This document shows, in pieces, positions 30,927 to 35,954 of a stretch of 64,000 nucleotides of DNA. How positions within the stretch are numbered: the stretch's first letter is position 1; each line of letters starts with the position of its first letter. This DNA comes from Candidatus Binataceae bacterium (GTDB taxonomy: Bacteria > Desulfobacterota > Binatia > Binatales > Binataceae). The stretch spans positions 751 through 64,750 of the forward strand of contig JASHOJ010000078.1 of NCBI GenBank assembly GCA_030041155.1, in the 5' to 3' direction. The translations under genes were made by a program, and so were the position numbers. The notes beneath the pieces were generated by a model. That model searched no databases. It had not been told where the DNA came from and saw only the letters and a program-made list of their open reading frames with translations.

Positions 30927-32351
30927 ATGGTTGCCCGGCTTTCCATTCCCAGAATCGTGGTCGGCGCGACGGGAAGCGGATGCGGCAAAACCACGGTTAG
31001 CCTCGCGATCGCGGCGGCGCTGCGGGCGCGCGGCATCAAGGTAGCCGCTTTCAAGTGCGGGCCCGATTATCTTGACCCGAGCTATCACGCGCGCGTGCTG
31101 GGACACACGTCGCAGAACCTCGACAGTTGGATGATGGGGCGCGAAGCGGTGCTCGCAACCGTCGCTCGCGCGGCGCGTGGATCCGATCTCGCGATCATTG
31201 AAGGAATGATGGGGCTCTTCGATGGAGCCACACCCGACAGCGACGAGGGATCGACGGCCGAAATCGCAAAATGGCTCGATGCGCCGGTGCTACTGGTGCT
31301 CGATGCGTCGGGAATCGCGAGGACGGTTTCAGCGATCGCGGCCGGATTCGCGGGCTTCGATCGAGCGCTGAAAGTCGCAGGCCTCATCTGCAATCGCGTG
31401 GGCGGCAAGGGCCATCTCGACCTGCTGCGCGCGGCAAATTCGGAAACGCCGATCGTAGGCGGTCTTCCATTCGAAGCCGCGGTCGCATTTCCGGAGCGCC
31501 ACCTGGGACTGATGCGAGCCGATGAAAAATCCGTTCCGGATGGGGTAATAGAACGGCTGGCGGACCTCGGCACACGATGGCTCGACCTGGACGCGGTTGT
31601 CGCGCTTGCGAAATCCGCGCCGCCGCTTGAGGTTCCGGAGCGGGAAGACGCAGGACCGCGCGCGACACCTCGATGCACAATCGCCGTTGCATATGACGAC
31701 GCTTTTCATTTCTACTACGAAGATAATCTGCGCCGCCTCGAAGAATCCGGCGCTGAGCTGGTGCGATTCTCGCCGGCTTTCGATTCAGAGCCGCCGCGCG
31801 CCGACGGTATCTATATCGGCGGCGGCTATCCCGAAGCGCTCGCAAACGAGCTTTCATCGAACCGATCGATGCTCGCGGGAATACGAGAATTCGCGACGGG
31901 CGGGGGACCAATTTACGCCGAGTGCGGCGGGTTGATGTATCTGTGCGAAGGAATTCGCACAATTGATGGGAGGTTGTGGCCGATGGCCGGACTGATTGCG
32001 GGAATCGCTGTGATGCGCGATCGACTGCAGGCGATCGGATACGTGGAAGTTGAGACGCGCGCTCCGACATTAATCGGCGTGGCAGGACTTCGATTTCGAG
32101 GGCATCAGTTTCGCTACTCGGAGCTTCAGCAATCGAGCATTGAGGTCGAGCGCACCATAAAGGCCTATCACGTGGTGTCGCGATGGACCGGCGCAGCGTT
32201 TGAAGAGGGATTCGCTTTCCGCAATGTGCTTGGCTCCTACGTTCATGCGCACTGGGCGTCGAACGGGTTGGCGGCAGAGGGCTTCGTTGAATCGTGCGCG
32301 CGATTTCACCAATCTGGACGTGAGGATCTTCGGGTCCGAAACTTTCGATGA
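30927..32351 (+). CDS. cbiA: Cobyrinate a,c-diamide synthase (CbiA/CobB)
   Basis: SGCGKTT, FKCGPDYLDP, IEGMMGLFDG, ERHLGL, AFHFYY, GGGYPE, YAECGG (GATase Cys), SYVHAH. Confidence 0.93.
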   Translation: MVARLSIPRIVVGATGSGCGKTTVSLAIAAALRARGIKVAAFKCGPDYLDPSYHARVLGHTSQNLDSWMMGREAVLATVARAARGSDLAIIEGMMGLFDGATPDSDEGSTAEIAKWLDAPVLLVLDASGIARTVSAIAAGFAGFDRALKVAGLICNRVGGKGHLDLLRAANSETPIVGGLPFEAAVAFPERHLGLMRADEKSVPDGVIERLADLGTRWLDLDAVVALAKSAPPLEVPEREDAGPRATPRCTIAVAYDDAFHFYYEDNLRRLEESGAELVRFSPAFDSEPPRADGIYIGGGYPEALANELSSNRSMLAGIREFATGGGPIYAECGGLMYLCEGIRTIDGRLWPMAGLIAGIAVMRDRLQAIGYVEVETRAPTLIGVAGLRFRGHQFRYSELQQSSIEVERTIKAYHVVSRWTGAAFEEGFAFRNVLGSYVHAHWASNGLAAEGFVESCARFHQSGREDLRVRNFR

Positions 32352-33199
32352 AAGCCGACCAGGAAAACTCGCTGTCAAAAAGCCGCGACGCGGTTCCGTC
32401 CGCGCCTCTTACGCTCGAAGGCTACGCGATTTTGCATCAGATGTTCCGGATTCGGCGGACGAAGTGGCGCTCCGCGGATAGCAAGGAGCGCGCATCGATA
32501 ATTGCCGAAGCGGAGGCGGCGCTTTCCGCGATGGCGCCTGGGAGCGACGGCGAATCGGCGGCATTCTCAGTCCTCGGCCACAAGAGCGACCTTCTGCTGA
32601 TTCATTTTCGGCGCGGATTCGACGAGCTTGGCGAGGTGGAGCAAGAGATCGGAGCACTTGCGCTAAGCGATTTCCTTGAACCGGTGACATCATACCTTTC
32701 GATGATCGAGATTGGGCTCTACGAGGCGACGGTCGCGATGCACACGCGCCTTGATCGCGAAAACATTCGTCCTCGCACGCCCGAATGGAGCCAGGCAGTT
32801 GCGGCGGAGCTGTCGGCGCAGCGTCAAAAGCTGGGGACGCGGCTGTATCCGAAAATTCCCGCGCGGCGCTACTTGTGCTTCTATCCGATGGACAAGAAGC
32901 GCGAGGGCGACGACAACTGGTATCGCCTGCCAATCGAGGAACGCCGCCGGCTGATGCACGAGCATGGGATGGTTGGGCGGCGATTCGCGGGAGAGGTAAC
33001 TCAGATAATTTCCGGATCGATCGGTTTCGACGACTTCGAGTGGGGAGTGGATCTGTTCGCAGACGACCCGCTGGTGTTCAAGAAACTGATTTACGAGATG
33101 CGTTTCGACGAGGCGAGCGCAGGCTATGCGAAATTCGGCCCCTTCTATGTTGGAATCCGAACCGAGGCGCAGGAACTCGGCGAGCTGATGCCCGCCTGA
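32348..33199 (+). CDS. chdC: Coproheme decarboxylase (ChdC/HemQ)
   Basis: APLTLEG..LHQ, FYPMDKKR (catalytic Tyr), NWY.LP, HEHG (proximal His), QIISGS.GFDD.EWGV, YEMRFDE; ATGA overlap with cbiA. Confidence 0.88.
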   Translation: MKADQENSLSKSRDAVPSAPLTLEGYAILHQMFRIRRTKWRSADSKERASIIAEAEAALSAMAPGSDGESAAFSVLGHKSDLLLIHFRRGFDELGEVEQEIGALALSDFLEPVTSYLSMIEIGLYEATVAMHTRLDRENIRPRTPEWSQAVAAELSAQRQKLGTRLYPKIPARRYLCFYPMDKKREGDDNWYRLPIEERRRLMHEHGMVGRRFAGEVTQIISGSIGFDDFEWGVDLFADDPLVFKKLIYEMRFDEASAGYAKFGPFYVGIRTEAQELGELMPA

Positions 33200-33265
33200 G
33201 CGCCACACGCGACGCTTCGAAATTAACAGCGGTGATTAATTGGCGGAGACCTCAGGCCGTCGCGC

Positions 33266-33496
33266 TTAACGCTTGCGCCGCGACTCGAGCTCATCCTCGA
33301 CTTCATCGCGAATCGGAAAGCGCCCGGTCTTCGCCTTGGAAAAGATAAGGCTGCCGTCGGCGATTACGTCGAACTGGCCTGACTTTCCGGGAGTGATCTC
33401 CACGCTGTAACCGAAGCGATCCTTGATGGATGCGGCCAGACTGGCCGCCTGAGGCTTATAGCCTCAAGCCGAGCAATAGAGAATTTCAATAGCCAT
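33266..33496 (-). CDS. Rdx (SelW/SelT/SelH) family selenoprotein, TGA at 33464-33466 read as Sec
   Basis: MAIEILYCSAUGYKPQAASLAASIKDRFGYSVEITPGKSGQFDVIADGSLIFSKAKTGRFPIRDEVEDELESRRKR*: YCxxU plus G.F.V, IFSK and GRFP Rdx signatures; absent from the ORF track. Confidence 0.92.
33432..33448 (-). promoter_or_regulatory. Bacterial SECIS-like hairpin
   Basis: mRNA GCGGCCA-GUC-UGGCCGC; stem starts 15 nt after the UGA, loop begins GU. Confidence 0.7.
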
Positions 33497-33502
33497 GATT
33501 TG

Positions 33503-33531
33503 AGGCTAGCGCTCTACTGCGATTCCCTCAA
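33503..33531 (-). promoter_or_regulatory. Candidate sigma70 promoter giving a leaderless selenoprotein mRNA
   Basis: TTGAGG-N17-TAGCCT-N6-ATG; no SD at canonical distance. Confidence 0.5.
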
Positions 33532-33568
33532 CGATCGCCGGTGTGTGCGCACCATCAGTGCGCGCGAG

Positions 33569-34132
33569 CTAGCGCCCGTTTGGCAGGTCCACAAAGACCG
33601 CGGCCGCAACCACAGAGGACCACAGGCCATCGCGATCACCTATCGCGGACTGGGTGACATTGCGGGTGGTGATGATCTTATCGGAGAGGCGCCAGACGTC
33701 CTTACGCTCGTCGTAACTCGCGTTAGGATCGAAATCGACGCCCAAGATGGTCGCGAGCATCTGCGCGGCAAGATCCTCAGCATAATCGCCGGCTTTCTGA
33801 TCCGTCTCGCCGAAGCTGTGATGCTCCGAAAGGTAACCGTACTGATCTGGGTTGGCGGGAATCGCGACGCCGACCGAAGCGGCAATGAGCCGATGGGGCT
33901 CGTTGATCGCGTTCTCGCTCATCACCGCATAGACAATCTGGCCGGGGCTCAGGTACTTGAGTCCTTCCTGCTGGCTGATAAGCCGGCAGCGCGGCGGAAA
34001 AATGGATTTTACGCGAACGAGATTGTATTCCGCGATTCCGGCGGAACGCAGCGACATCTCGAACGCGGTGAGTTTCTCGCGATGTTTGCCGACACCTTTG
34101 GTGAGAAATGCGGCCTTCGGAAGCGGTCCCAT
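33569..34132 (-). CDS. pdaD: Pyruvoyl-dependent arginine decarboxylase family protein
   Basis: FLTKGVGKH.EKL.AFE..LR.AGI..YNLVRVKSIFPP, YGYLSEHH, YAEDLAAQMLAT. Confidence 0.88.
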   Translation of the reverse strand: MGPLPKAAFLTKGVGKHREKLTAFEMSLRSAGIAEYNLVRVKSIFPPRCRLISQQEGLKYLSPGQIVYAVMSENAINEPHRLIAASVGVAIPANPDQYGYLSEHHSFGETDQKAGDYAEDLAAQMLATILGVDFDPNASYDERKDVWRLSDKIITTRNVTQSAIGDRDGLWSSVVAAAVFVDLPNGR

Positions 34133-34277
34133 CTACGTTGGTTCTCTCCTGAGTAAGCGGCCTGATCCCGCCGCGCAGCGCTTCATTACGACACGCAATC
34201 CATCAAAACAGCCAATCGAGCGCGCCGGCGATCCGAACCGAGATCGTCTATTATACAATGCCGGGAGCGGGCGCTAC

Positions 34278-35954
34278 TCATAGGGTATTGACGGGCTGAT
34301 ATTCGCCGAACACGCGGCGCATCGCATCCGCGATCTCGCCGAGCGTGCACCATGCGCGCACCGCATCGACGATGGCGGGCATCAGGTTGGTGCCATTGCG
34401 CGCCGCCGCCTCGACGCGCTTCAGGCCGGCGCGAGCCCTGGCACCATCGCGTTCGGCGCGAACCCTGGCGAGGCTTCGCTTCTGTTTTTCCTCCAGCTCG
34501 GGATTCACCTTGAGAATATCCTTCGGCAGCTCGCCGCCGTCGGTGAATTGATTGACGCCGACGATGATTCTTTGTTTCGTTTCGATTTCGCGCTGATAGA
34601 GATACGCAGCGTTCTGAATTTCGCGCTGCTGATACCCGCGTTCGATCGCTGCGACCGCGCCGCCCAGGTCGTCGATACGGGAAAGATATTCGCGGGCGCG
34701 CGCTTCCAGCTCGTCGGTCAGCTTCTCGAGGAAGTACGCGCCGCCGAGCGGATCGATCGTGTCCGCGACGCCGGATTCGTAGGCGATCAACTGCTGAGTG
34801 CGCAGGGCGAGCAACACCGAAGATTCGGTTGGCAGCGCCAGCGCCTCGTCGCGGGAGTTGGTGTGCAGCGACTGCGCGCCCCCAAGCACGGCCGCCATCG
34901 CCTGCATCGCAACCCGCACGACGTTGTTGTCAACCTGCTGGGCCGTCAGAGTTGACCCCGCAGTTTGCGCATGAAACCGCATCATCATCGAGCGCTCGTC
35001 GGCGGCGCCGAAGCGTTCTTTCATAATCCGCGCCCACATCCGGCGGGCGGCTCGGAATTTCGCAATCTCCTCGAAGAAATTGTTGTGAACATTGAAAAAG
35101 AACGAAAGCCGGCTTGCGAAGCTGTCGACCTTGAGCCCCGCTTTAACCGCGGCGTCGACATACGCGATCGCATCGGCGAGCGTGAACGCCAGCTCCTGTG
35201 CCGCGGTCGAGCCCGCCTCACGAATGTGGTACCCGGAAATCGAAATCGTGTTCCAATTCGGCACTTCCTTCGATGCGAAGCTGAAGATGTCGGTGATTAT
35301 CCGCATCGAGCCGCGCGGCGGATAAATATAAGTGCCGCGCGCAATGTATTCTTTCAGCAAATCGTTCTGGATGGTGCCGTTCACCTTGTCCCACCCGACT
35401 CCGCGCCGCTCGGCCGCGACCAGATAGAGCGCCAGCAGAATCGAGGCGGTCGCGTTTATCGTCATCGAGGTGGAAATTCGATCGAGGGGCAAATCCGAGA
35501 GCAGCGTCTCCATATCGGCGAGCGATCCGATCGAGACGCCGACCCGCCCCACTTCGCCGGCGGCAAGTGGATGATCCGAATCGCGGCCCATCTGGGTCGG
35601 GAGGTCGAACGCTACCGACAGTCCGGTCTGCCCCTGCTCGAAGAGGTAGCGGTAGCGGCGGTTCGATTCCTCAGCGGTACCGAAGCCCGCGTACTGGCGC
35701 ATCGTCCACATACGTCCGCGATACATGGTGGGCTGCACGCCGCGGGTAAAAGGATACTGGCCGGGAAATCCGAGCTCGGTCGCGTAGTCGAAACCATCTA
35801 GATCGGCGGGATCGTAGGTCCGCTTAATCTCGATATCCGAGCTGGTGGTGAATTTTTCCTTGCGCTCCTTGCCGCGTTTGAGGGCGGGCGCGAGTTTCTG
35901 TTCCTGCCACTGTTTGCGCGCGGAGTCGAGCGCCTTGGATTTGGGATCAGCCAT
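34278..35954 (-). CDS. Methylmalonyl-CoA mutase large (substrate-binding) subunit, no B12-binding domain
   Basis: [22 protein letters not shown] (Tyr specificity residue), [36 protein letters not shown]. Confidence 0.94.

Follow-up and report, generated by a model that had tools for sequence, protein, structure and literature searches.

The interval between chdC and pdaD looks empty in the stretch of DNA analysed here, 64,000 nucleotides (nt) from Candidatus Binataceae bacterium (assembly GCA_030041155.1, contig JASHOJ010000078.1, positions 751 to 64,750 of the forward strand; hereafter the window, whose own numbering is used throughout), and this raises the question of whether a gene has been overlooked there. 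Read with translation table 11, positions 33266-33496 give fragments only, of 45 and 41 amino acids (aa). The original prediction, made from the letters alone, held that the gap is a clean minus-strand frame of 76 codons once a TGA is read through, and translation returned exactly that: a frame running from ATG to TAA with one TGA inside it, at codon 11, whose product (U standing for the TGA) is the 76-residue peptide MAIEILYCSAUGYKPQAASLAASIKDRFGYSVEITPGKSGQFDVIADGSLIFSKAKTGRFPIRDEVEDELESRRKR. Since an in-frame TAG lies four codons 5' of the ATG, the start is fixed at this ATG, with none further upstream. The TGA occupies the last position of a C-S-A-U motif (Cys8-Ser-Ala-Sec11, Sec being selenocysteine) that is preceded by a tyrosine. 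We argue that 33266-33496 is an intact gene for a 76-residue SelW-like selenoprotein with a Cys8-Sec11 couple, recoded by SelB and a selenocysteine insertion sequence (SECIS), a reading to which we assign a probability of about 0.93.

What kind of protein would this frame encode? Two family models align with the read-through peptide across the TGA and bear out the assignment to Rdx made in the original prediction: Pfam Rdx (PF10262; residues 3-70, E 1.4e-17, 64.1 bits for a cut-off of 22.6) and NCBIfam TIGR02174 CXXU_selWTH (54.4 bits for a cut-off of 34.2). Judged by these scores, 33266-33496 is a member of the Rdx / SelT-SelW-SelH family, and a six-frame search of the organism's own genome returned it as the sole Rdx gene there (56 bits, one TGA inside). 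A sequence search of the PDB matched Rdx-family chains only (2ljk, 2fa8, 2npb, 2p0g, 2oka, 2obk, 2ojl and 3dex; E 7e-9 for MIEN1, 2ljk), whose CxxC aligned to CSAU; in MIEN1 and in Atu0228 (2fa8) it is the second cysteine that aligns with Sec11. In the 77-row alignment (A3) used for an AlphaFold2 model both CxxU positions, C8 and Sec11, are invariant. The model, with a mean predicted local distance difference test score (pLDDT) of 88.1, has the order b1-a1-b2-b3-b4-a2 (strands 2-7, 31-36, 42-46 and 49-53; helices 14-28 and 63-75) and places the motif after strand 1 and before helix 1, where thioredoxin folds classically carry it. Foldseek ranked the bacterial SelW-related proteins 2fa8, 2p0g, 2ojl and 2obk at the top (query TM-score, TMq, 0.80-0.91; root-mean-square deviation 1.0-1.2 A), followed by mouse SelW and MIEN1 and, after these, by thioredoxins. 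As modelled, the product is a minimal thioredoxin-like domain. The founding description is reportedly that of Dikiy et al. 2007.

Set against known relatives, the predicted protein is an ordinary one. The Cys-form Rdx structures (Atu0228, 2fa8; VcR75, 2p0g; BpR68, 2ojl; 2obk; 2oka; SAV_2001, 3dex) share its fold over 68-76 columns and carry the motif in the same place, but theirs is a CxxC that needs no recoding, and they are only 24-29% identical to it. Mammalian SelW (2npb) and MIEN1/C17orf37 (2ljk) belong to the same Pfam family and have the thioredoxin-like fold, with CxxU in SelW and CxxC in MIEN1 after strand 1; mammalian SelW is a distant match (E 5e-5, TMq 0.68), and eukaryotic SelW depends, according to PMC1088965, on a SECIS that lies in the 3'-untranslated region and is built differently. 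The closest likeness is with the bacterial SelW-like selenoproteins described by Zhang, Gladyshev and colleagues (PMC1088965 on the Sargasso Sea selenoproteome, PMC1794560 on the evolution of bacterial Sec), small Rdx proteins (~75-100 aa) with an N-terminal CxxU, likewise equipped with a hairpin that shows a G in a small apical loop just past the UGA. From these the gene of the window does not differ in kind; the host lineage is another one and the copy, at 76 aa, is short. In Table 1 of PMC1088965, SelW-like outnumbers every other known selenoprotein family of the Sargasso Sea set with its 48 unique sequences, and PMC1794560 places the family in many bacterial genomes.

Is the TGA kept among relatives, and does it pair with cysteine? 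Among 41 genomes searched in six frames (the organism's own and 40 relatives), the Rdx gene was found in 29, among them 23 of the 24 further members of the organism's family. TGA stands exactly at codon 11 within C-x-x-U in 28 of the 30 loci obtained, the peptide being conserved on both sides of it, and the other two (in genomes G036 and G032) have TGT at that codon. One TGA form (L034) comes from an unpublished genome, G010, without which the counts become 27/29 loci and 22/23 family genomes; none of our claims depends on that locus alone. A scan of contigs of named metagenome-assembled genomes (MAGs) gave C-x-x-TGA in 55 of 57 loci, the two exceptions looking degraded (L095 lacks the motif and L106 has glycine at the Sec site). 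Among named records, MAGs of Candidatus Binataceae come nearest, at 78% identity and lower, while the distant ones carry depositors' labels as varied as Myxococcales/Polyangiaceae, Desulfobacteraceae, Actinomycetes/Gaiellaceae, Planctomycetota, Acidobacteriota, Zixiibacteriota, Tectomicrobia and Poribacteria. Of 151 genomes sampled evenly from the organism's GTDB phylum, 30 gave an Rdx match, and one TGA was present in 28 of the 31 matches; a motif filter caught 25 of the 29 loci of the phylum sample (L117-L145), 24 of them with TGA, and hairpins in the same place were there judged by eye and left uncounted. The alignment check proposed with the original prediction supported it, with TGA or cysteine found at exactly codon 11. 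The high share of TGA agrees with the statement in PMC1794560 that SelW-like selenoproteins have few or no cysteine homologues in Sec-using organisms.

An organism that reads UGA as selenocysteine must have the means to do so, and the prediction that this one makes selenocysteine is supported by its genome, a 4.50-Mb assembly of 335 contigs (94.5% complete, 4.18% estimated contamination). All four sel genes scored above their cut-offs: selA, a partial match cut by the start of contig C152 (340.7 bits for a cut-off of 267.9; model positions 179-443 of 455); selB, on contig C275 (356.6 bits); selD, directly beside selB (378.5 bits); and selC, the tRNA-Sec, with anticodon tca (69 bits for a gathering score of 47). 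Further in-frame TGAs of the Sec type point the same way. The selD gene has one of its own (L010:2395-2397 = G000:C275:6542-6544, minus strand) in the context KASGUAGKLGP, with a G-loop hairpin (loop GGC) starting 17 nt past the UGA; its SGUAGK stretch is presumably the catalytic Cys/Sec site of SelD, and the SelD of this organism looks like a selenoprotein itself. An FdhA-like gene (L110:1828-1830 = G000:C228:20369-20371, minus strand), an open frame of ~1100 aa, has an in-frame TGA in NQARIUHSASV and, 11 nt past the UGA, the hairpin GGUGCCC-GGUCU-GGGCGCC, with 18 nt from UGA to loop; its family match spans the TGA, and it is likely a Sec-containing FdhA/FdnG. No stop interrupts the genome's best Fdh-alpha match, which lies on contig C281.

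A scan of the genome for TGA, hairpin and nearby cysteine, which is not a census of the selenoproteome, returned 457 candidates, nearly all off-frame; these were ranked by composition, ten were picked by eye and three were sent to Pfam. Two of the three matched families across the TGA: a Redoxin/AhpC-TSA (Prx-like) gene (L146:1-1074 = G000:C248:10044-11117, plus strand; 358 aa) with W-U-G-C at residue 115 (46.8 bits, residues 82-192), and a CMD/AhpD-like gene (L147:1-636 = G000:C270:15736-16371, plus strand; 212 aa) with C-P-F-U at residue 80 (38.7 bits, residues 60-123). Both show G-loop hairpins within the allowed range, 20 and 17 nt past the UGA respectively, and are candidate selenoprotein genes; the third, L148, was dropped as it matched no Pfam family. 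The FdhA, Redoxin/AhpC-TSA and CMD/AhpD types are all listed as bacterial selenoproteins in PMC1794560. Among the relatives, selB scored above its cut-off in 37 of the 41 genomes (36/40 without G010) and in 25 of the 27 that have the TGA form. The only complete relative with a Cys form, G032 (L049/L117; 100% complete, motif YCTQCRW), gave no selB match, which is consistent with the Cys form going with absence of the Sec trait, a single case; G036 has a Cys-form Rdx yet keeps selB.

The signal that would direct insertion lies where it was predicted, 15 nt past the TGA: the hairpin GCGGCCA-GUC-UGGCCGC has a stem of 7 base pairs (bp) and a 3-nt GUC loop closed by A-U (A-G-U-C-U). Alone it folds at -12 kcal/mol, where shuffled versions average -4.7 and none of 200 went as low. 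In common with SECIS elements of the E. coli fdhF type and with the bSECISearch consensus model, it lies within the coding region, directly 3' of the UGA, and has a small loop of the form N1-G-[G|U]-N-N2; what sets the SelW-like family apart is that, wherever serine stands at the loop, the codon pair is invariably Ser(AGU)-Leu(CUN/UUG). The stem of the fdhF SECIS has no known sequence relation to that of the window. The consensus bSECIS model, as given in the legend of Fig. 2 of PMC13188914, has an apical loop of 3-9 nt with G in its first two positions (mostly N1-G-[G|U]-N-N2), an upper stem of 4-16 bp, a UGA-loop distance of 16-37 nt and a minimum free energy of -7.5 kcal/mol or below; set beside these published constraints by hand, the hairpin of the window falls inside all four (loop of 3 nt, stem of 7 bp, distance of 22 nt, -12 kcal/mol). 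An Rfam scan of 32800-34000 at E <= 10 gave no SECIS family match, only a chance hit to the snoRNA sR2 (13 bits, E 5.3). A second hairpin, UGAGGCU-AUA-AGCCUCA (33450-33466, minus strand; -10 kcal/mol), contains the UGA itself; we set it aside, for it is full-length only with the proline codon CCU, shrinks to 4 bp in most relatives and is probably incidental.

Might the hairpin after the UGA be a by-product of GC-rich coding for the helix start RAASLAAS, with Sec inserted through another element? GCG-GCC ... GGC-CGC is a natural palindrome of alanine codons, so that the coding of Ala-Ala-Ser-Leu-Ala-Ala favours part of the stem, and such structures also arise by chance in this GC-rich genome: hairpins with 7 bp or more and a G[GU] loop stand after 1199 of its 124675 TGA triplets (0.96%), for which reason a hairpin alone is weak evidence and our case rests on the hairpin combined with the family match, the Cys/Sec pairing and conservation. 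The conservation of the pairing is, however, difficult to reconcile with coding pressure. Among 27 Binataceae-level sequences (A1), 95.8% of pair cells were standard versus 27-50% when the partners were slid by one to three columns, with compensatory change in two pairs; among 56 sequences from many phyla (A2, 53 distinct), 94.6% of the cells of an 8-pair helix were paired versus 31-48% in slid controls, and 62 cells were doubly changed, in five of the eight pairs, with 16 further pair types. None of 500 shuffles reached the observed pairing, the count of compensatory cells or the covariation score; shuffles ignore relatedness, and the slid controls, which are the fairer comparison, were also far lower. 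Some of the double changes alter the protein, as when GCGGCCA/UGGCCGC (AAS-LAA) becomes GCCGUCA/UGACGG (AVS-LT), which argues that RNA pairing is selected in its own right. The codon at the loop, over 76 distinct sequences, was AGT in 67, GGT in 6, AGG in 2 and GGC in 1, so that serine was written AGT in 67 cases out of 67, where AGT makes up 6.5% of the serine codons in the long open reading frames (ORFs) of the organism's own genome (a crude count over 1307 ORFs). The distance from UGA to loop was 22 nt in 32 rows of A2 and 25 nt in the other 24: in homologues with one extra residue after Sec the hairpin shifts along with it and stays inside the 16-37 nt range. Although a stem of 4 bp, its loop beginning with G, persists in the same place in one Cys form (L044), an unbroken run of at least five pairs below a loop with G, at an allowed distance, occurred in 70 of 76 distinct Sec forms and in none of the Cys forms, which had 4, 4, 2 and 3 and number only four. 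A hairpin that owes its existence to coding is, on this evidence, highly unlikely.

The two remaining alternatives concern the TGA. It might be an ordinary stop, so that the locus is a remnant, dead or never coding, or expresses only the downstream 45-aa ORF (from GTG at 33403). The table 11 fragments would fit this, TGA is the commonest stop in the genome, and frameshifted copies in relatives (G014, G018) show that the gene can decay; yet the ten codons before the TGA (M-x-x-x-I-L-Y-C-x-x) are protein-conserved across phyla and the family models align straight through it, the TGA has been kept in the great majority of close and named loci as no inactivating mutation would be, and every invariant or near-invariant position of A3 is present in the window's copy, all of which makes an ordinary stop extremely improbable. 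Alternatively UGA could be read as another residue, by a near-cognate Trp, Cys or Arg tRNA or through lineage-wide reassignment, and the public gene call of one relative does show W at position 11, as a TGA=Trp code in some pipeline would produce. But TGA terminates 722 of the genome's 1376 open frames with 400 codons or more, and many relatives' Rdx copies too, so TGA is not reassigned; the site pairs with a redox cysteine, and Trp or Arg there would destroy the CxxC/U motif; and a hairpin with a SelB-type G-U loop is conserved in a genome with the full Sec machinery. We regard another residue at this codon as very unlikely. Against a recoded SelW-like gene stand, besides the alanine palindrome and the chance rate of hairpins, a few further points. 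The ATG is not preceded by a recognisable Shine-Dalgarno-like motif. The narrow NCBIfam equivalog NF041051 SelTWH_Campy was missed, at 81.2 bits for a cut-off of 88, and because of this score we do not file the protein under it. The selA gene is only partly assembled, and a fragmented assembly with 4.18% estimated contamination might in principle owe individual sel genes to a contaminating contig. Finally, selB was not found at E <= 1e-60 in two TGA-form relatives, both of them fragmented MAGs, G001 (90% complete, 600 contigs) and G011 (93% complete, 430 contigs).

With the SelW-like selenoprotein as the preferred reading, a course of expression can be proposed. An mRNA probably shared with pdaD would be translated from the ATG at 33496, and the UGA at codon 11 would not be taken as a stop, since the hairpin downstream would display its A-GUC-U apical loop 22 nt after the UGA, where SelB carrying Sec-tRNA(Sec) with anticodon UCA would bind and bring selenocysteine to the ribosome. 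In the finished protein Cys8-x-x-Sec11 would most likely cycle between thiol/selenolate and selenenylsulfide, reducing an oxidised thiol substrate. The analysis establishes the family, the fold model, the recoding signals and the machinery; insertion of Sec, co-transcription with pdaD, the redox chemistry and the substrate are the inferred steps of this scheme; insertion and chemistry are carried over from the known behaviour of the family, and for the relative SelT PMC4840926 reports Cys/Sec-dependent oxidoreductase activity. The positions of the gene, its elements and its neighbours are collected below.

Coordinates, in the window, of the predicted SelW-like gene, its elements and the neighbouring genes
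Feature	Positions	Strand	Remarks
SelW-like/Rdx-family selenoprotein gene (predicted)	33266..33496	minus	76 codons + TAA stop; ATG 33496-33494
Cys8 codon TGC, resolving cysteine of CxxU	33473..33475	minus	invariant in the 77-row A3
Sec11 codon TGA	33464..33466	minus	codon 11; conserved, pairs with Cys
Spacer from UGA to SECIS stem, 15 nt	33449..33463	minus	codons 12-16, GYKPQ
Bacterial SECIS hairpin (predicted)	33432..33448	minus	5' arm 33448-33442, GUC loop 33441-33439, 3' arm 33438-33432
chdC	32348-33199	plus	NF008913, 318 bits, cut-off 253
pdaD	33569-34132	minus	TIGR00286, 118.8 bits, cut-off 106.95
Methylmalonyl-CoA mutase N-terminal domain gene (mcm)	34278-35954	minus	upstream of pdaD
cobB-like a,c-diamide synthase gene	30927-32351	plus	overlaps chdC start (32348) by 4 nt

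The flanking genes had been named correctly as chdC and pdaD, both scoring above their family cut-offs. The SelW-like gene follows pdaD on the same strand after 72 nt and faces chdC tail-to-tail across 66 nt. The pdaD and SelW-like genes are probably co-transcribed. A scan of 33000-34400 gave no promoter-like site at all and no terminator-like one within the 72-nt gap; the sole terminator-like site of the scanned interval lies inside pdaD and within shuffle expectation, and says nothing firm on operon structure. Most Binataceae-level loci keep the order mcm-pdaD-Rdx, which those of other phyla do not show. This synteny is, as gene order goes, a sign of shared ancestry at the family level at least and carries no functional link by itself. 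It may be tempting to read a peroxide-linked role into the convergent chdC, which encodes an H2O2-dependent heme synthase, but since the synteny does not reach beyond the family a chdC-linked role stays speculation and we did not retain it. As a separate observation, the cobB-like gene and chdC (30927-33199) look like a translationally coupled tetrapyrrole pair, which also adjoins the Rdx gene in several relatives.

How new is such a gene? The SelW-like family has long been known in bacteria, and the gene of the window adds a host without changing the picture of selenoproteins. A full-text literature search, with the supplements of PMC1794560 and PMC1088965 and the database BSepDB (PMC13326102) outside its reach, gave no paper combining Binatota with selenoprotein, or Binatia with selenocysteine; Binatota and selenocysteine occur together in one paper, where selenocysteine appears in the reference list only. 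The host lineage may be unreported for a SelW-like selenoprotein, and the supplements or BSepDB may already list genes of Binatota/Desulfobacterota_B. One may go further and see in SelW-like a near-universal core gene of Binataceae (23/24 same-family genomes), fixed in the order mcm-pdaD-selW, part of a Sec-decoding trait (selB 37/41) that the searched literature does not report for Binatota, with a loop hard-wired as Ser(AGU)-Leu in at least half a dozen phyla and, in the window, possibly a replaced allele; taken jointly these statements form a tentative synthesis, to which we give slightly less than an even chance. With the loop hard-wired in that codon pair, the RNA signal would dictate a rare codon and the two residues at the start of helix 1.

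The main value of the locus is one of annotation, in that such genes are truncated or dropped by standard callers whereas the true product would be a 76-residue selenoprotein. The original prediction that standard gene callers miss the gene stands as regards truncation and dropping, and needs qualifying as regards absence, for public catalogues hold 43-57-aa pieces of near-relatives, from the part after the TGA, under the name 'predicted Rdx family selenoprotein', together with one full-length call, the one with W at the TGA. More widely, the in-frame TGAs suggest that an uncultured Binataceae-like lineage uses selenocysteine in at least five genes (SelD, FdhA-like, SelW-like, Prx-like and AhpD-like), which would bear on metabolic reconstructions, for instance of formate oxidation and of redox defence involving peroxide and thiols, as well as on how much selenium is required in the soils and sediments from which these MAGs come. 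The broad and clean covariation data for one SECIS type might be used to train or test models of bacterial SECIS elements.

As to the history of the window's own copy, the tree groups its 76-aa short form with that of another genus (G019/L051; support 98/85) and leaves it outside the 10-row clade of its own genus (support 94/98; L022-L033 compared), most members of which reach ~100 aa and possess a Pro-rich linker as well as a basic ...GFVNRVLGKLRK tail. For the neighbouring pdaD, identity is 91-95% to those of the same genus and only 76% to that of G019. The copy may stem from a local, in-place allele replacement from the other genus, the sequences being short and the signal modest.

Some copies elsewhere appear damaged. 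Those of G018 (L043) and G014 (L045), both with the TGA, are apparently frameshifted after about residue 43, and L092 is frameshifted too (the three after about residues 43-47); together with L095 and L106 these may reflect assembly errors or real decay. Genome G002 (79% complete, 4% contamination) holds two full mcm-pdaD-Rdx loci of different types, L024 and L050, which points to two strains or a mixed bin more than to a duplication.

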